This document shows, piece after piece, positions 10,494 through 62,314 of a stretch of DNA of 64,000 bases. Each line of letters begins with the position of its first letter. Positions within the stretch are counted from its first letter, which is position 1. Under the pieces are notes generated by a model. The model had not been told where the DNA came from. It made no database searches and was given only the letters and a program-made list of their open reading frames with translations. Source of the DNA: Antedon mediterranea (taxonomy: Eukaryota; Animalia; Echinodermata); assembly GCF_964355755.1 (NCBI RefSeq), contig NC_092675.1, positions 25,392,912 through 25,456,911 of the forward strand, given 5' to 3'. Both the position numbers and the translations under genes were made by a program.

Positions 10494-11795
10494 AATATAA
10501 ATACTCCTGAAAATTAAATATAGACATGCCTATAGATTATAAGACCTTCGATTACCAATAGAAACCTGATACCATACAAATAAACATTCAGTGTAAATTA
10601 AGGCTTAACCTTGTGTCACAATTAAAGATGATGTAAATATACTCATACCTAGTTAAGGCATAGAAAAATATCTCTATGGTTAAGGTGAACACCCACGATC
10701 CACTGATATTTCCTTTGTTAAAAGCGGTTTGACAGACACAATAACATCAATGTGGACATAGACAAGGCTGATGACTGAGTGTATTTGATGTTGTTATCTG
10801 TAACACACACTGAGTCAGAGTGCTAATAAACTTTGAATTATTTTGAGGTAAACAGGAAAAGGTAGGTAGTCTGCTGAACACCTATAAAGTACAAGGACTT
10901 TATTTCCTCTGATAGGGACATATTTTAGATGTATTTCATATAATATAATATAATAATAATTTATTTGGAAGCTAAACTTTTGAAACAGTGGCACACTTCT
11001 TGAATGAAGGTGCGTCCAGAGTAAGTAAAATAAAAATTAGAGAAAAACATGATTTAACAATAGGCCTATTGGTTAAAATTAAACACTTTACTCTGAAATA
11101 TGCGAGTGTACATAAAAAATCATCATACAGAAAAAAATTATACATCCGTCAATAGTCTTAGGGGACGGTACAAATGAATTAAAGTTTAATCTGTTTCCCC
11201 TGACTATTGCATAATATCAGCAAGAAGTCTTTTCTATCTCATTTTATCATAGAAATGTTCTTTTAAAAAAGAATGTATCAATTGGAAAATATACCATAAT
11301 GTGACACATTATAAATTTATCCTTTGTGACCACATTGGAGGTTGAAGAAGTTTGGACTTCAACCTTCAATGAATCCTGAATACCAAAATCACCCAAAATA
11401 TGTTTTTTTCTTTTTAGTTTTTTTTTAATAAATATATAGTTAATTGAATTATAGAGTAACGTTTCACTCAACATATTGCACTAGGAGCCCAAATCAATTG
11501 ATAATTATATTTTTTTCCTTAGTGTAAATTTAAAAGATTCGCTGAAAATCAATCATCCGCACAGTTTTAGAGTGAATATGTATGAATTTCTCACCTTCTC
11601 TCACTTTAATAATATACTTTAAAAGGCCAAATTTTATTCTACTTTTCTAATTTAATCATTTTTTTTATTTCCTATATTGCAATAAAAATAGAACATTAGG
11701 ATGCAAACAATGTTATTTTTATATTGACACTCAATTTAATATTTTTTTCTCATGTTTTTATTTTATGTAAGCGGATATGGACAGTTTTTCTCTTA

Positions 11796-12620
11796 GGGCC
11801 TGTTTCTGCTGCAACTGCTCAAAATACGGTATAAAAATACAGTATTTTTTATACCGTATTTTTTAGTACCCCGTTTCTGCTAACAATAATTCTTGAGTGG
11901 TCGTGTTAAATTTCATCCTTTTTACCCAAATTGCCATTCATTTATTTGGTCGATAATTAAAAGTCGCAATAAAGGAAGTTTTACGCCTCACTTTCAACAG
12001 TCTAGTCCTAGTGATAGAGATGTTGTGAGAGCACAAAAAACATCGTAATGGGGACAAGTAATTCGTTCCCTCTCCGAGTTATTGTCTTTTGCAATGTTGT
12101 ACTGCTTTCGCAGGCTCTTCAGCTTTGAGTTTACTTGGTTTGAAGACAAGTCTATTCCGTACTCCAGCTTCATTTTTGTAAAAATGTCTTTATAAATGTG
12201 GTTGTCCCTTTTATTACCTTTTAGTTGGCCAGACATTTTAGCTTCCCCACCCCTCCTTCCCCACACAGATTTATATAGTAAATACTGTGACGTCTTCGCT
12301 TCACATTTTCGCCGAATATATCTATACACGTGTGTAAAACAGCTGACAGCGACAGAAAATAAAAACACGATGTTGACCTCATGTTGCAGGTAAAAAAAAT
12401 ATGGTATTTTTTATTGGCAGCAGAAAAGGGTACAAATAATACGGTATGAATTTGTAAATGCCGTATTTTATCCACAAATTTTGTGGGGAAAATACGGTAT
12501 ACAAAATACGGTATTTTTTTTATGAGCGCAGTTTCTGCTGCCAAAAAAATACGGTATATATATGGTATTCAATAAATACCGTATAAAATACGGTATTTTC
12601 TTGGCAGCAGAAACAGGGCC
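11796..12620 (-). mobile_element. Non-autonomous PIF/Harbinger element with Myb/SANT-like (trihelix) remnant, copy 1
   Basis: TIRs GGGCCTGTTTCTGCTGC / GCAGCAGAAACAGGGCC, with TTA on the left. Subterminal arrays of AATACCGTAT/ATACGGTAT. Minus ORF 11994-12368 contains IYKDIFTKMKLEYGIDLSSNQVNSKLKSLRKQYNIAKDNN...CPHYD, a Myb/SANT-like pattern matching the Harbinger DNA-binding ORF. No DDE transposase. Confidence 0.8.
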
Positions 12621-21520: not shown

Positions 21521-22100
21521 AGCAAACTCAACATCAGAGGAGGGACAGAGGAAGATGTTAAATGAAGGATTGGGAAAGCACAGGTGGCTTTCAATATACT
21601 AACAAAAGTATGGAAGGCAAGATACATCAGCACAGAAACAAAGATCAAAATATTCAACTCAAATATCAAATCAGTACTGTTATATGGATCAGAAACATGG
21701 AGAACTACTAATCAAATAATAAAAAAAAGTGTTCATCAATAAATGTCTGAGAAGGATTCTCAGAATATGGTGGCCAGAAAAAATAAGAAATGAGGATCTC
21801 TGGGTTAGAACTGGACAAGAGCCAGTGGAAATTGCAATTAGCAGAAGGAAATGGAATGGTCACACACTAAGGAAACCAAAACACAACATAACTAGGCATG
21901 CCCTAACATGGAATCCCCAAGGAAAACGAAAAAAAGGACGCCCAAGGAACACATGGAGGAGGGAACTGGATAAGGAGGTGAAGGATGCTGGCTATAACTG
22001 GACAGAGGTGGAAGGAATTGCCCAGAACCGTGTCAGATGGAGACGTGTAGTTGATGGCCTATGCACTGCTAGGTGTAACTTAAGGCTTAAGTAAAGTAAG
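21521..22100 (+). mobile_element. 5'-truncated RTE-clade non-LTR retrotransposon (ORF2 C-terminus)
   Basis: Translation KIKIFNSNIKSVLLYGSETW...KCLRRILRIWWPEKIRNEDLW...WNPQGKRKKGRPRNTWRR...AQNRVRWR is characteristic of RTE. 3' tail TAAGTAAAGTAAG. 12-bp TSD TATATATGCCAA at 21509-21520 and 22101-22112. Confidence 0.9.
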
Positions 22101-49242: not shown

Positions 49243-50368
49243 GGCCCTGTTTCTGCTGCCAAGTAAATACCGTATATACTATTTTTGAATAGTCGTGTTT
49301 TTATTTTCTGTCACTGTCAGCTATTTTACACACGTGTATACAGTAGATATATTCGGCGAAAATGTGGAGCGAAGACGTTACGGTATTTACTATATAAATC
49401 TGTGTGGGGAGGGAAAAGCTAAAATGTCCGGCCAACTAAAAGGTAATAAAAGGGACAACCACATTTATAAAGACATTTCTAAAAAAATAAAGCAGGAGTA
49501 CGGAATAGACTTGTCTTCAAAGCAAGTAAACTCAAAGCTGAAGAGCCTGCAAAAGCAGTACAACATTGCAAAAGACAATAACTCGGGGAGGGAACGAATT
49601 ACTTGTCCCCATTACGATGTTTTGGCCCGGATATTGGGAGATCGGGCCATAGCTGTGCTCTCACAACATATCTAGGGCTAGGCTTTTGAAAGTGAGGCGT
49701 AAAACTTTGTGTATTGCGACTTTTAATTATCGACCAAATAAATGAATGGCAATTTGGGTAAAAAGGATGAATTTGAACACGACCACCCAAGAAGTATTGT
49801 TAGCAGAAACGGGGTACTAAAAAAAAATGGTATAAAAAATACCGTATTTTATACCGTATTTTTATACTACTACTATTATACTACTATACTATATAAATCT
49901 GTGTGGGGAGGGAAAAGCTAAAATGTCCGGCCAACTAAAAGGTAATAAAAGGGACAACCACATTTATAAAGACATTTCTAAAAAAATAAAGCAGGAGTAC
50001 GGAATAGACTTGTCTCCAAAGCAAGTAAACTCAAAGAGCCTGCAAAAGCAGTACAACATTGCAAAAGACAATAACTCGGGGAGGGAACGAATTACTTGTC
50101 CCCATTACGATGTTTTGGCCCGGATATTGGGAGATCGGGCCATAGCTGTGCTCTCACAACATATCTAGGGCTAGGCTTTTGAAAGTGAGGCGTAAAACTT
50201 TGTGTATTGCGACTTTTAATTATCGACCAAATAAATGAATGGCAATTTGGGTAAAAAGGATGAATTTGAACACGACCACCCAAGAAGTATTGTTAGCAGA
50301 AACGGGGTACTAAAAAAAAATGGTATAAAAAATACCGTATTTTGAGCAGTTGCAGCAGAAAAAGGCCC
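49243..50368 (+). mobile_element. Non-autonomous PIF/Harbinger element with duplicated Myb/SANT-like remnant, copy 2
   Basis: TIRs GGCCCTGTTTCTGCTGC / GCAGCAGAAAAAGGCCC with TTT on both flanks (3-bp TSD). Same family as 11796-12620, in opposite orientation. Internal ~0.5-kb tandem duplication (49388 vs 49887). ORFs 49295-49675 and 49923-50168 encode the trihelix fragment ...CPHYDVLARILGDR. Confidence 0.85.
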
Positions 50369-51752
50369 TTTGTTGATTGTACTTTGTTCTGTTGATTTAA
50401 TGGGTGATTTGTAATGTCAATCTTTTACAGTCAGCGTGACAAAGAATGAAATTTCACTTTCGTTTTAATCGACGATGAAAGAGACTGGGTGATGAAAAGC
50501 AGTCTTCTTAGATACAAATAAGGACATTAACTGAAGAAAGCATTCTTAATTATAGAAATAGATTCTTAGTAAGAGATTTCCATGATTATTATTAACTACA
50601 TACAATCAAAACAGACAAAATTAATACTAATCCCATTTATTTATCTATCATTAAAACTATAATTTATAACACGAAACGATGTAATAAGATAAGCATTAAA
50701 ATTAAGTCTTTATACAAAGTACATTCTCAATATGAAAGATTTTAGCAACAAGTTAATTATTATTTACTGTACAAACTTTATCTATCTGCATTTTTCATAT
50801 TTAAAAACATATAAAGAAGTCAAATGACTGGACAACTATACTTATATTTCACATAAAAATAAGAAATATAAATATAAACCTTCAAAAGCATGAAAAAAAT
50901 GGTTTGCAAAATTCTCATATTTCGTAAGTGCAATTCCCCTCCTTGACCTTGCTATATCAAGCTATATTTTCAATAAACCTATAGTTTTAGGAAACAAAGA
51001 TGATTGGGAAAATAGGTTTAAATCAGCTGTACTGAGAATGAAGTAGGCCTACACCATGAAAAGAATTCAATAATTAGGCCGACTACAGACTGAAGTAGGC
51101 TTGCACCTCTGGGTTGAAAGAGGCCGATTGACGCCCGGAAAAAATAAGTAAGCACGTATGCCTACCACTAATCCTAAAGTTCCTTCATAATGCTAGGCCT
51201 ACGATTTCAAGTTCGGCAAATTTCTAATATCCACTTTTACTTAAAAACTTGTAGTTGTGTAAAAAGGATTAATTTCATAATGTTATTACTATAAAAACCA
51301 TCATTAAATTACATTAAATACAGTAAGTAGGGGAGGTTACCATAAAAAATGCGCCACAAACAAAATCCAGGTGTTCAATTTACCATCAGAGAAAATAGTT
51401 CATCAACATTGAGGGCGCAAAACCACAAGACTGCACACTGCAGCAGTTTTTGGTTATTTTAGCTAATCAAAAAAAACCAGAATTGATCATTTCTTAAATA
51501 ACCTTATGTAGGCCTACAACTCATACTAATTAAAACAATGTACTTATGTTTTTCATTGCAACAACAAGAAAGTCTTTTTTACAATTTTAGTGCCAAAATA
51601 TCGTTTAGGCAAATCAAACATAGAAGATAAAATTCCATGAAAAAATATGTTGTAATAATAATACAGGTGCACTGTGAACCCATCGTCGCACAGTTTTCAC
51701 AATTACTCTACCTTTATTATTAGGCATATTGGTGTTATGTTAGATTATTAAA

Positions 51753-53873
51753 TTATTTAGAACCGTCTTTATTGCGCTGCGATTTAGGAGTAACTTTTGT
51801 GTACACGAGGCGTCTTTGTTTATGACCCGTTCCTTGGCCAGGTTTAGTATGGGAGTTTGGATTTTCATTTTTGTTGCGTCGTAGATTTGAATCTGGCAAA
51901 CTATATATGTGTTCCTTGGCGTCGGTTTCACTCATCATTTGTTCATTGTCGGAATTTTGTTTGCTTCTACCTGGATCCACTTTTTCGTCTTTCCTGCCAT
52001 CAGATTCTAACGAATCGTCGTCGTCGGACTGACTGCGTGCTGAATCGTTAATTTCGTCTGCAATATGATTATAGATTGCAAACTTTTCTGTTTTTATATT
52101 ATTTCTTTCACTCTCTGGAACCTCGTGATAATATTCTTCCGCGGGGTTGTTAATTTCGACTAACAAATTAGGTTTCTCGGTTCCTTCTTCGTTTATTTCG
52201 GCGTAGAGAGAATGTTCTAAAATGTTGTTCATGTTAACAACTCTATCCACAGCATCTCTTTTTATGGGAATATCTAGTTCACTCTCAGTAACATCGTGGT
52301 AATACCCTTCTGTTTGTTTGTTATTTTCAGCTAATAAAATACGTCTAATTTCTTCTTCGTTTATTTCTGCATAGAGTGGATTTTCTAACATTTTATGATG
52401 TTCTTCACTTATTGGGGAAACTCTATCCATAGTAAAAGACAATTCGGTTTCTCTTTGAATGGCTGGTAAAGCTTCAGGAGGTCTTTGCTTTCCTACTTGT
52501 TTTGTCAGCGTCATTGTCCCGGGTAGTCTAATATCTTCTTGTCTGCTTGATGCTATAGACAGGTCTGATGAATATGCCCTAAGAGTTGAAAGTGATGTTT
52601 GTGGCGCTAAAATTGCCAATGGAAGCGTCTGTTGCTGAATATTCATAAAATCATCTGTTACCTGGTAGTTTAAAATGGCTTGTACCGGGTTAACTTGGAG
52701 ATTTGGATTTGGAGATTTTTTAATATACTTCAAACACTGCAAGCCGATAATTAAAATGACACATATAAATACGATTGATAAGATGCTAATCAATTCATTA
52801 GAATATTTCTCAGAAGGTGGAGAGTCAGCAGTAATGTGAGGTTTTACAGAAGCATCAGGATGTGATGTAGCCGCCATCCGTCTAGGAACTTCTGTGCTAG
52901 CTTCGTACTTTAAACATTCTTCTATTTCAATCGTCATCGTCGTTGATTTTAAAACATCACCATCGTAAACTGTACACGTTATGTTCTCTCCTTGCATTTC
53001 ATTAGTGACATTTCTGATAAACAACTTGTTTGGTGAATTTTTTTTTCGTATTGAATTGCCAAAAATAAAATCATTTGTTGAATTCCATCGAAATTGGATT
53101 TCTTCTTTGTTTATATTTTTATAATTCGCTGAAGTTTGAGGTTTCCTTTCAAATGCGTTGCACCAAATTGTTGCCGATCTGTTAAATATAAATTCAGTTG
53201 CATCCATTTTGACCACAATATGACGTTTGATAACAACGGTAGATGTACACAAATGTACGTCATTCGTTTTCATTGTGCATGTGTAATCAGTTTCCTCGTA
53301 TCTATCCATTGCTATGAACATAGCACTACTAATAAACTTGTTCTTATGTGTGATATTAGTAAAAACTGCGTGTTTAGGAAATTGTTCCGCATCCCAGTGC
53401 AGCTTCAAAGATGGATACGGGTATGTTTCACAATTTAATGTGACATTTTCACCAACAATGTACTCTGATTTTGAAGGGATACATACCGGGTCTGAAGGTA
53501 TTGGCAGCACTACTAGTTTCTTCTTAGCAGAATTAACAATTAATCCATCGCCTTGGTATATACATTCGTATACGCCAGTGTCTGTTCTCGTTAGATTTTG
53601 AAGAACAATTTCTAGTCTCTCTTTGCCATTTATCGTCGAATTTATAGTATTCATTTTAAAAACCTTATCACCTTTTTTCCAAATTGTATTGTCAATGATG
53701 GTTTCTGCTAAAGATTCCATTTCAATATCCAAATCACAATAAAATGTAAACGTTTTGCCAACAACGACATAACTAACATAATTTTCAGGATAGCATTGTA
53801 GAACAACAGCTGACTTAATTATGGGCAAGAAGAGAAGAAACAGGTAAACGAGAAAATGTAACAAACGACTCAT
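51753..53873 (-). CDS. Ig-superfamily type-I membrane receptor, copy C: signal peptide, 3 Ig-like domains (V/I-C2-C2-like), TM, long Tyr-motif/ITIM-containing cytoplasmic tail (~706 aa)
   Basis: Uninterrupted ORF from ATG 53873 (MSRLLHFLVYLFLLFLPIIKS signal). Ig motifs FTFYC..IWKK..LQNLTRTDTGVYEC, VTLNC..LHW..YTC and TIWC..FRW..LFIRNV..ITC. TM LISILSIVFICVILIIGL. Tail with NPLYAEI, SLYAEI, YYHDV/YYHEV, IYNHI, IYSL and LVYTKV. Confidence 0.88.
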   Translation of the reverse strand: MSRLLHFLVYLFLLFLPIIKSAVVLQCYPENYVSYVVVGKTFTFYCDLDIEMESLAETIIDNTIWKKGDKVFKMNTINSTINGKERLEIVLQNLTRTDTGVYECIYQGDGLIVNSAKKKLVVLPIPSDPVCIPSKSEYIVGENVTLNCETYPYPSLKLHWDAEQFPKHAVFTNITHKNKFISSAMFIAMDRYEETDYTCTMKTNDVHLCTSTVVIKRHIVVKMDATEFIFNRSATIWCNAFERKPQTSANYKNINKEEIQFRWNSTNDFIFGNSIRKKNSPNKLFIRNVTNEMQGENITCTVYDGDVLKSTTMTIEIEECLKYEASTEVPRRMAATSHPDASVKPHITADSPPSEKYSNELISILSIVFICVILIIGLQCLKYIKKSPNPNLQVNPVQAILNYQVTDDFMNIQQQTLPLAILAPQTSLSTLRAYSSDLSIASSRQEDIRLPGTMTLTKQVGKQRPPEALPAIQRETELSFTMDRVSPISEEHHKMLENPLYAEINEEEIRRILLAENNKQTEGYYHDVTESELDIPIKRDAVDRVVNMNNILEHSLYAEINEEGTEKPNLLVEINNPAEEYYHEVPESERNNIKTEKFAIYNHIADEINDSARSQSDDDDSLESDGRKDEKVDPGRSKQNSDNEQMMSETDAKEHIYSLPDSNLRRNKNENPNSHTKPGQGTGHKQRRLVYTKVTPKSQRNKDGSK

Positions 53874-54535
53874 GTTGATAGAAACAAAATGAAAAGTATT
53901 CACCAGAAATATCGGTTTAGCCTAAGAACGGTTTTTCTGTACACTGCTTGATATATCATTCACAGTCGATGATGACAGTACAATAACAAAATACAAATGT
54001 ATGTGCTCCTATGTTAGTTCGGTAACTATTCTGATTCTAGGCCTTGATGGTTCCTTTTATACTGAACCAATGATTTCGCTGTAATTATTGGGTATACTTT
54101 ATAGTTTCATTACGAGTTTCAATTGTTTTTAATTCTTATAAATATATAATAATTATTATCAACTATTTATTAGAGATAGAAACAAAGCAGTTAGATTTTA
54201 GTTATAAATTAATTTTCCTTTAGGTCTATATCATTATACAATATTAATAGAAATTATAATAGGAAACAAGATGGAAGGAGTCCGTTATGGGAACTATTTA
54301 TAGAACTTGATTGAATGAGTAAAGAGGCAACAATCCATCACTCTAAAACAACCATCTTACACTAAAACAAATAAAACATTAGTAACTTCATATCATGGCG
54401 TAGATTTAAATATCACATTTTGTGATGACGTGACAAGAACGTAGTTACAATTACCTTATATGTCCAGGATGCGCAAGATCTGGACATGTACAAATGAATA
54501 AGACATTCACACAAGTCATTCAATTACCTTATATA

Positions 54536-54640
54536 TTTTTAGTCGCGTACAACGCGAATCTTTAGCTCACTTGGTCGGTCGGTTGGTCGGTAAACACTAA
54601 TTTTAGCACGCGACTGCAGCCATGTGTTTGGCCTTGTTTT
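54536..54640 (+). mobile_element. Helentron-associated (HINE/DINE-1-like) short element
   Basis: T-run flanks, subterminal inverted repeats AGTCGCGT / ACGCGACT, internal (GGTC)n microsatellite, 3' stem-loop GCCATGTGTTTGGC followed by CTTGTTTT. Confidence 0.6.
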
Positions 54641-54772
54641 AAAGCGTATTACATTATGAAATATCAATGCTTTCATTGCAGTCACGTTTTTCTTACTAAC
54701 ATTTCTGGTAATTTTACGTTACTACACACATTTTTATTACGCTTGATACATTTAAACCTCTCCAGTATATTA

Positions 54773-55969
54773 TTAAGGACTTGTAATTTTGTCAAAAAAT
54801 CTCAGACACTGCATGCTGGTAATTATGATAATATATAGAAACAAGATTGACTGAACTGATAGGAGAAGTATTGTAATAATAGGATTAACGAAAGTTTTAG
54901 ACGTACGAGGAGGTTGAGATTCATCAGTAGTGTGAGGTTTTACAGAAGCATCAGTATGTGATGTATCCGCCATCCGCCTGGAAACTTCTGTGCTAGTTTC
55001 GTACGTTAACAATTCTTCTATTTCAATCTTCATCGTCGTTGATTTTAAAACATCACCATCGTAAACTGTACACGTTATGTTCTCTCCTTGCATTTCATTA
55101 CTGACATTTCTGATAAACAACTTGTTTGGTGAATTTTTTTTTCGTATTGAATTGCCAAAAATAAAATCATTTGTTGAATTCCATCGAAATTGGATTTCTT
55201 CTTTGTTTATATTTTTATAATTCGCTGAAGTTTGAGGTTTCCTTTCAAATGCGTTGCACCAAATTGTTGCCGATCTGTTAAATATAAATTCAGTTGCATC
55301 CATTTTGACCACAATATGACGTTTGATAACAACGGTAGATGTACACAAATGTACGTCATTCGTTTTCATTGTGCATGTGTAATCAGTTTCCTCGTATCTA
55401 TCCATTGCTATGAACATAGCACTACTAATAAACTTGTTCTTATGTGTGATATTAGTAAAAACTGCGTGTTTAGGAAATTGTTCCGCATCCCAGTGCAGCT
55501 TCAAAGATGGATACGGGTATGTTTCACAATTTAATGTGACATTTTCACCAACAATGTACTCTGATTTTGAAGGGATACATACCGGGTCTGAAGGTATTGG
55601 CAGCACTACTAGTTTCTTCTTAGCAGAATTAACAATTAATCCATCGCCTTGATATATACATTCGTAAACGCCACTGTCTGTTCTCGTTAGATTTTGAAGA
55701 ACAATTTCTAGTCTCTCTTTGCCATTTATCGTCGAATTTATAGTATTCATTTTAAAAACCTTATCACCTTTTTTCCAAATTGTATTGTCAATGATGGTTT
55801 CTGCTAAAGATTCCATTTCAATATCCAAATCACAATAAAATGTAAACGTTTTGCCAACAACGACATAACTAACATAATTTTCAGGATAGCATTGTAGAAC
55901 AACAGCTGACTTAATTATGGGCAAGAAGAGAAGAAACAGGTAAACGAGAAAATGTAACAAACGACTCAT
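54773..55969 (-). CDS. Ig-superfamily type-I membrane receptor, copy B: ectodomain nearly identical to copy C, TM plus ~11-aa tail (~398 aa)
   Basis: Uninterrupted ORF from ATG 55969. Three Ig-like domains differ from copy C by ~3 residues before the stalk. TM/tail FVNPIITILLLSVQSILFLYIIIITSMQCLRFFDKITSP matches copy A. Confidence 0.85.
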   Translation of the reverse strand: MSRLLHFLVYLFLLFLPIIKSAVVLQCYPENYVSYVVVGKTFTFYCDLDIEMESLAETIIDNTIWKKGDKVFKMNTINSTINGKERLEIVLQNLTRTDSGVYECIYQGDGLIVNSAKKKLVVLPIPSDPVCIPSKSEYIVGENVTLNCETYPYPSLKLHWDAEQFPKHAVFTNITHKNKFISSAMFIAMDRYEETDYTCTMKTNDVHLCTSTVVIKRHIVVKMDATEFIFNRSATIWCNAFERKPQTSANYKNINKEEIQFRWNSTNDFIFGNSIRKKNSPNKLFIRNVSNEMQGENITCTVYDGDVLKSTTMKIEIEELLTYETSTEVSRRMADTSHTDASVKPHTTDESQPPRTSKTFVNPIITILLLSVQSILFLYIIIITSMQCLRFFDKITSP

Positions 55970-56702
55970 GTTGATAGAAACAAAATATCGATTTTGTCTG
56001 AAAACGGTTGTTCTGTACACTCTTTGATATATCTATCTCAGTCGATGATGACAGTACAATAACACAATACAAATATTTGTGCTCCTATGTTAGTTCGGTA
56101 ACTATTCTGATTCTAGGCCTTGATGGTTCCTTTTATACTGAACTAATGATGTTCCCGGATTTATGGGGTATACTGTATAGTTTCATTATGAGTTTCAATT
56201 GTTTTTAATTCTTATTAATATATAATAATTATTATCAACTATTTATTAGAGATAGAAACAGCAGTTCGATTTTACTTATAAGTTAATTTCACTTTATTCA
56301 TCTTGTAATAATACAAAATTTATAGAAATTTTAATATAGGAAACAAGATAGAACGAGTCGGCTATGAGAACTCTATGAAACTCAATTAAAATATTTGTTT
56401 AAACTTGTATTGATAGACTGAGTAAAAGCAAGTTATTTCTTCACTCTAAACAAAATAAAATTAAACGTTAGCAACTTTATTTTGTGTTGTGATGTGCCAA
56501 GAAAGCAGTTATACCAAGATGAGCAGGCATCTCGCCAAACGCAAAGGAATAATGCTGATACACATTCAAATAATTAATTAATTCAATTTATTTATTCTTA
56601 TAAAACACATTGTAAAATCACAATACACTATACAGTAAAAAGTACAAAACACAAAATGTTAAAGAGACTTAAAAAAACACTACAAATTATGAAAAAGATA
56701 AA

Positions 56703-57145
56703 CACATGATCTCTGAAAATATTATAAATACATATTTTACTAAACCAAACAAAATGTTTTAATTCAACAGTTGATTATAATGGTAAACAAAAATGTAAAC
56801 TCTATTATACACATTAGCAGTAATATAGGTAAATTTATCTCAGCAAATACTGTTTTTTAAACAAAAACAAAATGTAAATGATTAAAACGCTTTGAAGAAA
56901 ATGATTTTTATAAAGTAACATAATCACGTGATCTCTGAAAATATTATAAATACATATTTTACTAAACCAAACAAGATGTTTTAATTCAACATTTGATTAT
57001 AATGGTAAACAAAAATGTAAACTCTATTATACACATTAGCAGTAATATAGGTAAATTTATTTCAACAACTACTGTGTTTTAAACAAAAACAAAATGTCAT
57101 AAATTGTTCAAACGCTTAAAAAAAATTATTTTATAAAATAACGTA
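56703..57145. repeat. ~222-bp diverged tandem duplication downstream of copy A
   Basis: CACRTGATCTCTGAAAATATTATAAATACATATTTTACTAAACC starts at 56703 and at 56925. Confidence 0.9.
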
Positions 57146-57343
57146 AGTTGTTTGTAATCACGTTTGTATTCATCACGGAAACGAAATGTACAATTAGAAA
57201 GAAATTTTTCTCATCTACTGTAAGCAAACTGAAAATAGCAGAAACGCTTACAGCCAAATGCTTTTATATAAGCTATAGACTATATTACTACACATATTTT
57301 TATTACGCTTTTGATACATTTAAATCTATACATTATGGATACA

Positions 57344-58528
57344 TTACGGACTTGTAATTTTGTCAAAAAATCTCAGACAAAGAAGACTCGTAGCTATTAT
57401 AAGATATAGAAACATGATTGACTGAACTGATAAGAGAATCATTGTAATAATAGGATTAACGAAAGTTTTAGATACCTCAGTAGGCTGGGATTTATCAGAA
57501 GCATTATGATGAGAGTCATCATCTATTGTATGAGTATCTATGCCAACGTTTGTGCTGACGTTCGCCAAATGTTCTTCTATTTGAATTGTCATCATTGTTT
57601 CTTTCAAACTACCATCAGCGTTTACTGTACACGTTATGTTTTCTCCGTGCATTTCACTTGAAACATTGTTAATGAACAACTTATTTGATAAATTAGCTTG
57701 TTGTATTGCATCACTAAAAATCGCATTGTTTGATGAATTCCATCGAAATTGGATTTCTTGTTGTTTTCTGATATTAGTATAAAATGAAGTTTTTTGTTTC
57801 CTTTCAAAAACGTTGCACCAAATTGTTGCTGACTTGTTAACCATAAATTCAGTTGCGTTAATGTTGACTACAATATTACGTTTAATACCAATGGTAGATG
57901 TACACAAATGTACTTCATTCGTTTTCATTGTACATGTGTAATCATTTCTCTCATCTCTATTCATTGCTATGAACATAGCACTACTAATAACCTTGTTCTT
58001 TTTTGTGGTATTAGTAAAAATTGCGTGTTTAGGAAATTGTTCCGCATCCCAGTACAGCTTCAAAGTTGGATATGGGTATGTTTCACAATTTAATGTGACA
58101 TTGTCTCCGACAAAATATTCTGATTTTGAATTGTTACATACCGGATCTGAAGGTATTGGCAGCAATATTAGTTCCTTCTTAACAGAATTACCAAGTGATC
58201 CGTTGCCTTGATGATATATACATTCATAAACGCCACTGTCTGTTTCCGTTAGATTTGGGAGATTCATTTTTAGCCGCAGTTTGCCCTTTACCATTGAGGA
58301 ATCCGTAGTGTAAATTTCAACATTATCATCTTTTTTCCAAGTAGTATTGTCAATTATGGTTTTTGCTAAAAATCCCTTTTCAATATTCAAATCACAATAA
58401 AATGTAAACGTTTTGCCAAGAACGGCATAATTAACATCATGTTCAGGATAGCATTGTAGAACATCGGTTGATTTAATTATGCAGAAGAAAAGAAATAGGT
58501 AAACGAGAACATTCAATAAACGACTCAT
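57344..58528 (-). CDS. Ig-superfamily type-I membrane receptor, copy A: divergent three-Ig ectodomain, TM plus ~11-aa tail
   Basis: ORF 57344-58555. ATG 58528 aligns with the starts of B and C; an upstream in-frame ATG lies at 58555. Same Cys/Trp framework (DSGVYEC, VTLNC, TIWC, ITC). Tail CLRFFDKITSP. Confidence 0.85.
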   Translation of the reverse strand: MSRLLNVLVYLFLFFCIIKSTDVLQCYPEHDVNYAVLGKTFTFYCDLNIEKGFLAKTIIDNTTWKKDDNVEIYTTDSSMVKGKLRLKMNLPNLTETDSGVYECIYHQGNGSLGNSVKKELILLPIPSDPVCNNSKSEYFVGDNVTLNCETYPYPTLKLYWDAEQFPKHAIFTNTTKKNKVISSAMFIAMNRDERNDYTCTMKTNEVHLCTSTIGIKRNIVVNINATEFMVNKSATIWCNVFERKQKTSFYTNIRKQQEIQFRWNSSNNAIFSDAIQQANLSNKLFINNVSSEMHGENITCTVNADGSLKETMMTIQIEEHLANVSTNVGIDTHTIDDDSHHNASDKSQPTEVSKTFVNPIITMILLSVQSIMFLYLIIATSLLCLRFFDKITSP

Positions 58529-59482
58529 TCTGAACAAAATGAAATGCTTCCACATGTAGAAATATATCGGTTTTGAAACAAAAAACAGTTACTTTGAACA
58601 CTGACTACTGATTGACGATTACAGTCAAATGATAGCAGTATACATTAAAGAATGTGTTGTGGTTTGACAAAATCTTGTTGACGGTTTGTTTATTATTGTA
58701 CGTCATCATTGTTAGTTTCAATTGTGTTGAATGTTATAATTACTTCACTTAATTATTGGAAATTACAACAAAGGTATTTCGATTTTATTTATGAAACCAA
58801 ATTCAATTAAATTAACTTTATTCATCTTTTCATAACAACCTTCTATACAAGTGATAGAAGGGAACAGCAAGGGGCATGTACAGAAATGTTTTAAATTATT
58901 AACAAACAAACTTTACTTTATGGATTGAAATGGTGATGCCATGTGTATAAGAATACAGGTTATATCTAAGGATAAGCAAGCTATGGACAAAATGAATTAA
59001 ACAATAGTACCCGTATTTAACTGCAATATAAATACCGTTGAGGTGTTAATAGTATCAAGTGTTATACATGTGTCATGTGGCGGAAATAACAGTGTTAAGT
59101 GTCAAACAAAGACTAAACTTGAAATGGGTAAAACGAGTAGAATCATAATTATTTTTCTGCACAAGCTACCAGTAAGTGCATTTGTTAGAAACTGTTATAT
59201 AATGTGATATATCGCTGTAGGCCTATACGATTAATAATAACAAATACTGTAGGTCATAGTGTTGTTACAAAAAGTTGCTTGTATTATTCTACATTCTATG
59301 TCTTCGCTTTCTATCTTTAATTTCGTTTCACACTCAATGCATTGTTTGGCTTATTTAATATATTAATTAAAAATTGTAAAATTAAAAATGTCTATTCTAC
59401 TCCCATACGCTATAACATAATGCTTTTTTCATTATTATATTATTTTATTATAGTGAATAGATTACAAATATAATGTGAACTA

Positions 59483-62010
59483 TCATTTGAATTCTACAAC
59501 AATTAATTTTGTTTCTTTGATTGTCACACTTAATTCGTCTTCTTCTTTTGAGTCTGTTTCACGGCACGGTATGTTAAATTCACATGCGGTTTCCTGAGGG
59601 CCAATCATATAGCAGATAGACTGAAAGAAAAACGTTGAATACGCCAAACTGATTGACATTATCAACGTCAGAAATACGGCCATCTGTTGGTATATCAGAG
59701 TAATTGCTGGAAACATACATACTCCCGGGACAAATGTTGAAAATGCCGCCATCGTGATTGCTGGAGCTAATGATCTGATCGAGAAACAGACACGTGACTG
59801 CCTATCGGGGAAAGGAGCCAATCGGTATGCAACACCATAATGAATAGTGAAATCAACGGACAAACCTACGGCAAGAGAAAAAATGACAGATTCCATTACA
59901 TTCAATTCCCAACCAAGTAACACCAAGCTTCCAATCGTGACAAAAATAGTCCCCATGATTGATAACATAGCAAACGTAGATAAGAGAACATTCCTTGTCA
60001 CGATGAACAGAACAACTGCAGCCAAACCAATTGAAGATAACAATGCAATCGAACCATTTTTTACTAAACTCTTCTGAAGATCGTAGAAATACATTTGTAT
60101 CATCTTATGATCTGTAATAAACCAACCACCAGATAAACTTTCTGGGGCCGTTGATATTTCAGTTTCTGACCATGAGTTGACGCTTGACCAGTACTCATCC
60201 ATCGGTTTATACATACGTGATGCTGTATAATTGCTAGGAAACTGTAGCCTAGCGCCCAAGATATTTTTATTGTCATAAAATATGTAATTTTTATATTTCG
60301 GATACAGTTCTAAAAATTTAGGAAGACAAAGTCTGAAGGTATCATCATCAAATGAAGTATTGTACATGCCACAACAAGTTTGATTATTTATCGTAGAACA
60401 ATAACGAGACATAAAACTGATAAACGCCTCAATGAAGCAACTCTCATGTCGAGAATTGGCTTCATAGAAATCCTGCATTCTAACCATTGAGCAGAAATTT
60501 AGCATCCATTGCTGAACCTCTGGTGTCAAATTTAAAGGTTTGTCAAAAACTAAACGACCTCTATCGTCGGGATTCCAGTGATCGCCGTTATCTACTGGTT
60601 TCACTCCCCAGATGAATTGCATATTCAAGATTGAACTACCATCACTATCTTTTTCAAATCGAAATAGTTTTTGATATTTTGATTCATAAATTTCTATCAT
60701 ATTTTTATCGTTGAAAACAGGGAAATTTGAAGTTGGAAGTTGTAAACCTGGCGACACAAACACAACAAACGCTCCAACAAGTCCCATAAGTGAAAATAAA
60801 ATGATCCACAACAACCTTAACTTGATTACTAAGAAAGGTATCCACTTTTTAAAAAGTGCATCAGAAAGATTCGTAATTTTCTGATTGAGGTCTAGAAAAC
60901 ATTTAGTGTTGAACGTAAACCGTTGCATGAATGGTGATCGTTGGATATACTCATTTATAATAACAATCGCAGGAAGCCAAGATAGTGTTAAAACAAAGTT
61001 AAACAAAATTGCTGTTCCTGCATAAAGACCAAAACATTTTACTGCAGTAATCGAGCTTATCATATTAACAAAGAAAGCAGAAGAGGTCGTTAAGCTGGTG
61101 ACAAACATGGTCGGAGCTGCGTGTCTAAGAGTTCTTGCCATTACGTTCACAATGCCCTTTTCACAAACGTTTGACTCGTTCCAAATCTCCAGAAACACAA
61201 AAGTGTCATCTGCACCGATTGCAACAATAAGTAATCCTGTTGTCACAGCCAGAAAGGGAAAAAACTCCACTCTTGCGATGACAATATACGTAAAATAAGC
61301 TAAAACCAACGACAGAACGAAATTTAGCAATGTCATGCATGTGATGAATAATGATTTACTGTAGAACCATATAACAAGTATAATACAAGATGCGCTTCCT
61401 CCTACCAGAAATGTATCTTTCCAGAAATAATGGAAAAAGACGCCATATTTATCCACTTTTATAGCCACAATTTTACTTGCACCATTTTCCACAACCCTTT
61501 CCCGTTTAAACTCACTGTCTAATATATCATATAGTATTGCTTCGTTCTCTTCTTCAAGAATAAACGGTATAAATACCAATGTTGCTGTTAAATTATATGG
61601 GAAGTCTCCTGCATCTGTTTGTTCATTAACTTCATTGTTATAAAATTCCGAATCAGTCAAATAATGGAGCATGTCATAAACTGCATTTAGTTTAGTGCAA
61701 TTTTTTGGTACATTGCAATTTCTTGTAGCGCAATTGTGATGTAGAAAAAAATTGAGATAATAACTCGAACATTCTGAGAAAAGATCACGTGCTGTATCTA
61801 CGTCATTATCTGCTATGTCTTCACAAGTCGTTTTATTGCTAAGATGTAGTACAAAGTCGGCGACCGACAGTAGAGTACAACTCGTGAAATTATTGTAATA
61901 ATTATTTTGTATTCGTCTTTGCCAGTTACATATTGATTGTAGACCATTCTTGGTAAATAAGTTAGTCTCGGCAGTATTAGAGGTGAACACTACTGCCATA
62001 TAGTCTTCAT
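59483..62010 (-). CDS. disp: Dispatched-family RND/sterol-sensing-domain protein, large terminal exon
   Basis: 838-aa ORF with SSD, IGADDTFVF (61205-61216, GxxDD-type), WGVKPVDNGDHWNPDDRG and GLSVDFTIHYGVAY. Acceptor TTTCAG before 62010 keeps frame (G|AT GAA GAC TAT ATG). Confidence 0.92.
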
Positions 62011-62314
62011 CTGAAATACAATGTTAGATGTTTATATATTTGAAAAATATTGCAGATATTTTGTTAACTTTTCGTCCATAGGATATGTTAAAAATACGAA
62101 TATTTGCTTGATTAAAGTAGCCGTCGCCTATACTGTACAATATATAGAATTGTGCATCATTGCCATCCTTTCTTTAAAATACAAAATTAGGAAACTCTTC
62201 AAAGTCTATTAGAAATAATGCTGAAAATAAACTTCCATGATATCTATCAAATGGGTTGTTGTTTGTTAATTATATTTTAAACTAAGTTTGCGATTAAAAA
62301 GTAAAAAAGATTAC

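Follow-up and report, generated by a model that had tools for sequence, protein, structure and literature searches.

How two neighbouring receptor genes come to carry virtually the same ectodomain on entirely different cytoplasmic ends, and what such an arrangement may be good for, is the question raised by a cluster of three genes in the crinoid Antedon mediterranea. The genes, called A, B and C here, lie in a stretch of 64,000 nucleotides (nt) of contig NC_092675.1 (positions 25,392,912 to 25,456,911, assembly GCF_964355755.1), which as a whole is referred to as the window. In a preliminary description they were regarded as a candidate paired immunoglobulin (Ig) receptor system, with one ectodomain attached either to a tail bearing inhibitory motifs of the immunoreceptor tyrosine-based type (ITIMs) or to a tailless anchor. 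Gene C (51753..53873, minus strand) is a single-exon open reading frame (ORF) of 706 amino acids (aa), encoding a signal peptide, three Ig domains, a stalk, a membrane helix at aa ~362–380 and a tail. Gene B (54773..55969, minus) is a single-exon mosaic ORF of 398 aa, and gene A (57344..58555, minus) a single-exon ORF of 403 aa when counted from its first ATG, the ATG equivalent to the start of B and C being located at 58528. That the three are tandem, co-oriented and open three-Ig genes is confirmed by the ORFs themselves, by Pfam, which detects Ig families in all of them and fibronectin type III (Fn3) domains in none, and by an AlphaFold model of the B ectodomain with three beta-sandwich domains and a mean predicted local distance difference test score of 77. 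The genes are intronless, occupy 6.8 kb in all with 0.9–1.4 kb between copies, and share the layout of signal peptide, three Ig domains, stalk and single membrane helix, with a canonical cysteine pair in each Ig domain (46/104, 148/199 and 238/300). The ectodomains of A and B are 69% identical, and no fourth copy was found by tblastn within the 64-kb window.

The arrangement appears to be the result of two events of different age. According to informative sites and blastn, gene B is C-like in its 5' flank, ectodomain and proximal stalk and A-like from the helix onwards, including tail and 3' flank: the sites unite B and C between −400 and roughly nt +1050, and B and A beyond, and in nt 1100–1199 there are 29 sites uniting A and B against C, versus seven uniting B and C against A. 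Within the C-like part lies a tract that is almost completely homogenised, covering coding nt 1–940 (52934..53873 in C and 55030..55969 in B, both minus strand), from the signal peptide to the end of Ig3. Here B and C differ at only 4 of 940 positions (99.6% identity), with a fifth difference at nt 941, and the first 318 residues of the proteins differ at positions 99, 290 and 314 alone, so that the earlier estimate of about three residues was exact. The difference with the surroundings is sharp, since B and C differ at 45 of 388 positions in the 5' flank (Fisher p 8e-21 versus the tract) and at 15 of 120 in nt 941–1060 (p 7e-12), with 88% identity immediately outside the tract on both sides. 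Only two synonymous changes occur over 181 synonymous sites in the ectodomain; synonymous sites were thus homogenised as well, and constraint on the protein alone is insufficient as an explanation. Gene conversion produces this kind of pattern, with a tract that has limits on both sides, here close to the start codon and where Ig3 ends. The mosaic gene B is what one would expect if a gene of type A and one of type C had long ago recombined by unequal crossover, and a recent gene conversion would have homogenised the B and C ectodomains within this older pair; we consider this history of an old hybrid and a recent ectodomain conversion well supported. Three of the four differences in the tract are located within 23 nt (55652–55674), and at two of these B is identical to A, possibly due to a micro-conversion from gene A.

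Eight sequencing runs contain the stretch, and contigs from five of these (X1, X2, X5, X6 and X8) provide a view on copy number and age, with the restriction that contig depth is not equal to copy number. X1 and X2 are from one sample, possibly the source of the assembly, and X5 and X6 carry a second organism label, with 107 of ~3004 letters differing at a neighbouring Dispatched-like gene. Contigs of X2 without any difference cover the shared ectodomain at depths of 295, 299 and 250, as compared to 156 for a contig of the B-only stalk (54925–55059, also no differences), and in X1 the shared contig has a depth of 69 versus 32–38 for unique stretches. Shared sequence at double depth between unique flanks at single depth fits two copies, and as far as the contigs show, the suspicion that gene B is an assembly chimera was not borne out. 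A contig of X5 (54826–54960) joins a C-like stalk to a short-type helix (five differences, one 6-nt deletion), and both spacers between the genes are represented among the contigs of X6. The presence of this junction in the second organism suggests that the B-type locus is older than the split between the two. In the longest Ig3 contigs of the second organism, 7 of 114 and 9 of 118 letters deviate from B/C (6–8%), which is more than the 12–15 of 475 letters that differ in the tail of gene C and greatly exceeds the 0.4% between B and C themselves; paralogues that are closer within a lineage than across lineages are a mark of concerted evolution. The B-type junction would therefore predate the split, and the identity of the B and C sequences would not. 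In X6 there are two Ig3 types, each at about double depth, and in X5 only one of these types, which hints at matching by haplotype, albeit in two samples only. Contigs of X2, X5 and X6 match on either side of 55675/55682–55818 in the middle of Ig1, with none between, in line with the low identity of A and B at residues 51–98. At the stop codon, eight contigs were present in X6 and nine in X5, and at 54773–54901 loose ends of X2 contigs are unlike both A and B; both observations hint at further short-tail copies elsewhere. Run X8 has contigs for the coding region of gene A (1–6 differences per 186–275 nt) and for the 3' part of the Dispatched-like gene, and gene B is nearly absent; that X8 represents RNA is a guess, and no conclusion on transcription is drawn from it. 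None of the runs is registered as RNA, which counts neither for nor against expression. At 52343–52719, X8 contigs are ~87–92% like the tail of C, possibly from another paralogue with a long tail or from a highly divergent allele. An estimate of family size from summed contig depth was rejected, because overlapping contigs count twice.

The short ends of A and B were reported to follow about 11 aa after the membrane helix, and indeed both genes stop 9–12 residues past it. In a comparison of A with B, helix and tail appear to be conserved, with 82% identity, a ratio of nonsynonymous to synonymous substitution rates (dN/dS) of 0.41 (bootstrap 0.07) and the same SVQS stretch in both helices. Each gene has its own AATAAA on the minus strand, 35 nt past the stop of C (51713..51718), 35 nt past that of B (54733..54738) and 40 nt past that of A (57299..57304). 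No good splice donor was detected in the last 260 coding nt of A and B, where the best scores are 1.6 and 0.2, versus 5.0 for the best site within the ORFs, as judged with a rough, home-made matrix for which the calibration site was not a verified donor. With polyadenylation signals of their own and no good donor, it is unlikely that A and B are spliced onto hidden exons encoding long tails, as the preliminary description had considered. A putative TATA element (TATAAAAG, minus strand) occurs upstream of gene C at 54054..54061, within a block that is identical to the one upstream of gene B, where the element is found at 56130..56137. This common putative promoter may hint at overlapping expression; consensus sites for NF-kB, STAT, IRF or AP-1 were found upstream of neither B nor C.

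The cytoplasmic tail of gene C, which was given as ~315 aa with many tyrosine motifs, is somewhat longer (~320 aa) and has 11 tyrosines; the motifs stand, with six of the type YxxI/V (Tyr 501, 525, 557, 582, 601 and 691). There is one strict ITIM, LVYTKV, close to the C-terminus (51794..51809, minus strand; Tyr691 codon 51801–51803), and one relaxed ITIM, SLYAEI. Part of the tail is an internal tandem duplication (52087..52394, minus) of two ~56-aa units with 73% DNA identity, each with YAEI followed 24–25 residues further by YHDV or YHEV, and the tyrosine motifs were kept while the spacers diverged. When motif counts were compared with those in 20,000 shuffled versions of the tail, the number of YxxI/L/V/M motifs gave p=0.011, a value that is inflated since four of the six motifs originate from one 56-residue duplication and are not independent. 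No activation motif of the immunoreceptor tyrosine-based type (ITAM) is present, the YxxI/V motifs being at least 19 residues apart. The motif preferred by the C-terminal SH2 domain of SHP2 in a peptide library is pY-A(V/T/S)-x-I(L/V), as given in the accessible part of PMC12878756, and both YAEI copies as well as LVYTKV fit this pattern; SHP2 is activated best by peptides with two sites, as far as the accessible text of PMC6994217 goes. In the second organism the tail of C has no indel over 475 nt, and the three listed variants in the tail and stop codon are all silent, one of them changing stop to stop. The intact tail, the silent variants and the maintenance of motifs after duplication make it likely that the tail is functional; that its function is inhibitory is a prediction.

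Divergence among the genes is concentrated in the first domain. Amino acid identity between A and B is 64% in Ig1 (54% at residues 51–98) and 82% in Ig2, and dN/dS values are 1.16, 0.53 and 0.48 for Ig1, Ig2 and Ig3, respectively. Ig1 is thus the variable domain among A, B and C, and a dN/dS analysis of Ig1, which had been proposed as a check, indeed returns the highest value there, without reaching significance.

The preliminary description did not recognise the family, and the searches agree with this, as they return generic Ig proteins and no family-level homologue. None of the five exact sequences was present in the protein collection searched, the ectodomain of C had no homologue at E≤1e-5 among proteins of 388–1236 aa, and gene A had none at E≤1e-3 among proteins of 216–690 aa. 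An exhaustive HMMER search gave 224 matches at E≤0.001 and none at 1e-30; the best 150 of these are 21–38% identical and mostly multi-Ig proteins, and the ESM Atlas yielded generic Ig clusters only. An extra cysteine pair around Ig2, a signature defined in the present analysis, occurs in four of the 150 listed matches, all of them ambulacrarian 'CADM-like/hemicentin-like' proteins: XP_033120436.1 and XP_033107900.1 of Anneissia, XP_071957954.1 of Antedon and XP_006821765.1 of Saccoglossus. XP_033120436.1 (27% identity) also has the layout of gene C, with three Ig domains, a helix and a tail with tyrosines. These relatives are just 24–27% identical overall, carry automatic names and have no described function, and we know of no matched short/long pair among them. 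On these grounds A, B and C represent a young offshoot, evolving fast, of an ambulacrarian group of Ig proteins not described before, with no orthologue among named adhesion molecules. The earlier suggestion of an independently evolved family is thus plausible, with the qualification that the ectodomain belongs to this wider group. In Foldseek comparisons LRIG1 and titin rank first, followed by nectins and nectin-like proteins at ranks 3–8, 10, 11 and 13; these fold matches are generic (12–18% identity). For the nearest crinoid relative, CADM/nectin models show the greatest likeness. Nectins and CADMs share with A, B and C the three-Ig rod and provide many of the top fold matches, but they are only 12–15% identical and differ from them by the long tyrosine-motif tail of C and the fast Ig1; the search for a near-length homologue, which orthology to this or another conserved adhesion molecule would imply, found none. 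Nectins and CADMs have PDZ-binding C-terminal ends, and the ends of C (DGSK) and A/B (ITSP) are unlike these.

The single mechanism that we consider most likely, with a probability of roughly 45%, is that C is an inhibitory receptor and B its matched decoy. Upon ligand binding, Src-family kinases would phosphorylate YAEI, YAEI and LVYTKV of C, which would signal via these SH2-binding tyrosine motifs, likely by recruiting an SHP phosphatase, so that activation is dampened. B would be a membrane-anchored, non-signalling twin binding the same ligand, and with its shared putative promoter and ectodomain it would compete for or soak up this ligand, for which a microbial adhesin exploiting C is the most likely candidate. 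Conversion would keep the decoy matched while the Ig1 domain of C changes. A number of observations weigh against this mechanism. Neither the relaxed nor the strict ITIM count is above chance (p=0.096 and 0.22 versus shuffles), so that, of the proposed ITIM-bearing inhibitory receptor, the strict motif stands and the inhibition rests on a motif expected by chance in 22% of cases. Three of the six motifs (YHDV, YHEV and YNHI) are off the SHP pattern and have an acidic context, and given these C could equally well be activating or phagocytic. The excess of dN over dS in Ig1 lacks significance (bootstrap fraction 0.68, for the comparison of A with B/C only). The helices of A and B contain no Arg, Lys, Asp or Glu, with Ser and Gln as the only polar residues; counter-signalling by B cannot be shown in the absence of a charged residue, and the proposed coupling of B and A to an adaptor finds no basis here. 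Close tandem copies of any kind often undergo conversion, for which no selection is required. As to the contigs, their assignment to alleles or paralogues is uncertain, a single converted haplotype is directly visible, none of the listed contigs of the source-like sample spans both the ectodomain and the helix of gene B, and the B-stalk contig extends just 30 letters beyond the first B-specific site.

Alternatively, the arrangement may be a neutral by-product of a tandem family of lineage-specific Ig genes with fast turnover: B would have arisen by unequal crossover, its ectodomain would recently have been overwritten in a chance conversion, and B would have no dedicated relation to C. We regard this as a serious rival, although on balance an unlikely one. 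The short distance between the copies, the cluster of differences in 23 nt with two matches to A, which suggests frequent small exchanges, the additional short-tail copies suggested by the stop-codon contigs of X6 and X5 and the non-significant selection on Ig1 are all in its favour, whereas chance would not readily explain why the tract ends at about the start codon and the end of Ig3, as the 5' flank, being 88–96% identical, could equally have converted. Further arguments against it are the conserved appearance of the short helix and tail and the occurrence of a B-type junction under a second organism label. An assembly artefact, with B as a haplotype chimera or with an ectodomain overwritten by that of C during consensus polishing, could account for near-identity over 940 nt and for the lack of a listed contig spanning the whole of B. 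It is very improbable, however, in view of the doubled depth of the shared sequence next to single unique flanks in two runs of one sample, the four distinguishing sites that are kept between B and C, and the hybrid junction in an independent sample (X5).

A role in cell–cell recognition (allorecognition, gamete or neural adhesion) would involve like-with-like binding of the ectodomain, with B as the ligand or adhesion form and C as the signalling form, and conversion would keep the ligand and receptor of one haplotype compatible. The nectin-like fold ranks, the CADM/nectin likeness of the nearest crinoid relative, the variability of Ig1, the Ig3 types of X6 and X5 and, in the accessible text on these systems, the ITIMs in the tails of the invertebrate recognition proteins Alr and FcoR would agree with such a role. 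We nevertheless find it rather improbable, since the fold matches are generic and headed by LRIG1 and titin, and the C-terminal ends do not resemble those of nectins and CADMs. Moreover, crinoids are solitary and to our knowledge have no fusion or rejection system. Finally, a true opposing pair could exist if B and A activate via a crinoid adaptor that binds the Ser/Gln face of the helix, or if C is activating or phagocytic and B a dampening decoy. The SVQS stretch in both helices, the acidic context of YHEV and YHDV together with a YxN site in C, and the coupling of tail-less receptors to separate signalling chains in Botryllus (accessible part of PMC12582321) would be compatible with this, but in the light of the missing charged helix residue, the lack of ITAM spacing in C and the absence of an adaptor gene among the 133 ORFs scanned in the window, we give it little chance.

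If B functions as a decoy, a crinoid would have arrived on its own at the genomic design of paired receptors. An even more far-reaching version, which we put forward tentatively and consider doubtful, is that an echinoderm independently evolved a paired-receptor strategy in which an SHP-recruiting inhibitor has a tailless twin that is re-matched haplotype by haplotype via ectodomain-only conversion, while Ig1 evolves to evade a pathogen or to follow a self ligand. If true, this would be the first conversion-matched pair outside vertebrates, and one that operates without charged coupling of the DAP12/FcR-gamma type. Gene conversion that matches paired and decoy receptors is already on record for vertebrates, and clusters of ITIM-bearing Ig genes are already known in invertebrates (Alr, FcoR); the new elements are the mosaic structure of B and the homogenisation of B and C within the bounds of the ectodomain. 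The absence of A, B and C from the protein collections searched indicates that such receptor families can escape genome annotation. Since the genes are single-exon and 3 kb apart, one amplicon per animal would allow tests at the level of haplotypes.

Other features of the locus can be described briefly. In the genes themselves there is an extra stalk cysteine in C (Cys320, codon 52914–52916) and an extra cysteine near the start of Ig1 in all three (Cys27 in B and C; 53793–53795 in C), either of which could make inter-chain bonds. The spacer between B and C contains a short repeat of very high copy number (54534–54640; summed depth 57,000–230,000 in the DNA-like runs), and the spacer between A and B a tandem duplication of ~230 nt with 90.5% identity (56695–57146). 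The upstream neighbour, outside the receptor system, is a Dispatched-like gene, represented by its last exon (59483..62013, minus strand); over the 651 residues used as query it has 100% identity to a protein labelled Antedon mediterranea. Its best Anneissia match, among those listed, is merely 41% identical, and as several echinoderms have several Dispatched-like proteins it may be a divergent echinoderm paralogue. Matches of the 133 other ORFs in the window were limited to three Myb/SANT pieces and one DUF6451 fragment (21566–21739). The Myb/SANT-like (PF13837) fragments, at 11795–12410 and 49290–50343, are located inside a repeated element with a ~460-nt tandem duplication of 98.5% identity and are likely transposon remnants.

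With respect to known systems, the Alr proteins of Hydractinia are similar in being clustered Ig-type membrane proteins with diverse tails, some with ITIMs, and three of the tails are under 14 aa, as described in the accessible part of bioRxiv 10.1101/2022.03.04.482883. According to the same text, Alr domains 2 and 3 lack paired cysteines and most have an Fn3-like fold, unlike A, B and C, which have canonical cysteine pairs in all domains, no ITAM and no Fn3 match. The Fester/FcoR system of Botryllus, an invertebrate deuterostome, likewise has Ig genes in which one without tyrosine motifs lies beside one with an ITIM/hemITAM tail, but in the part of PMC12582321 that is accessible FF and FcoR are two families, mostly non-recombining and thought to be cognate pairs, whereas A, B and C belong to a single family and have their ectodomain in common. 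The term 'gene conversion' is absent from the main text of that paper, and a conversion-matched tailless twin is not described for Alr or FcoR in the accessible parts of these two sources. No protein named Fester or FcoR was present among the 20 homologue matches looked up, the accessible part of a review of invertebrate Ig proteins (PMC11999971) held nothing on point, and no echinoderm precedent was found in the open-access literature, supplements excluded.

The closest parallels are found in vertebrates. Paired receptors, as defined in the accessible text of PMC3533184, have highly conserved extracellular domains encoded in a small gene cluster, an inhibitory member with a cytoplasmic ITIM, an activating member with a short tail and an Arg or Lys in the helix for an ITAM adaptor, and overlapping expression in immune cells. 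The genes described here form a small cluster (three genes in 6.8 kb) with a conserved ectodomain (3 of 318 residues differing between B and C) and a short-tailed member; the tail of C holds a strict and a relaxed ITIM, in numbers not above those of shuffled tails (p 0.22 and 0.096). The charged helix residue is missing, so we do not file them as classical paired receptors; the analogy drawn earlier gains from the homogenisation bounded by the ectodomain. Conversion limited to the ligand-binding part is a hallmark of paired receptors, as stated in the accessible parts of PMC5112662 and PMC5701461, and B and C display it with 4 of 940 differences in the tract versus 45 of 388 and 15 of 120 on its sides. 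Like B and C, the Siglec-11/16 pair and the Xenopus and mammalian CEACAM pairs are clustered, have a near-identical ligand-binding part with one ITIM-bearing member, and have a conversion tract confined to that part between divergent flanks (PMC5112662, PMC5701461, as far as accessible); Siglec-5/14 is grouped with these conversion-matched pairs. Past the Ig fold there is no sequence kinship with A, B and C. The converting CEACAM pairs of Xenopus are reported to face opposite directions. The crinoid genes differ from the vertebrate pairs in being intronless and co-oriented, in having in B a partner without an ITAM or a charged helix residue, and in the conversion of the whole three-domain ectodomain.

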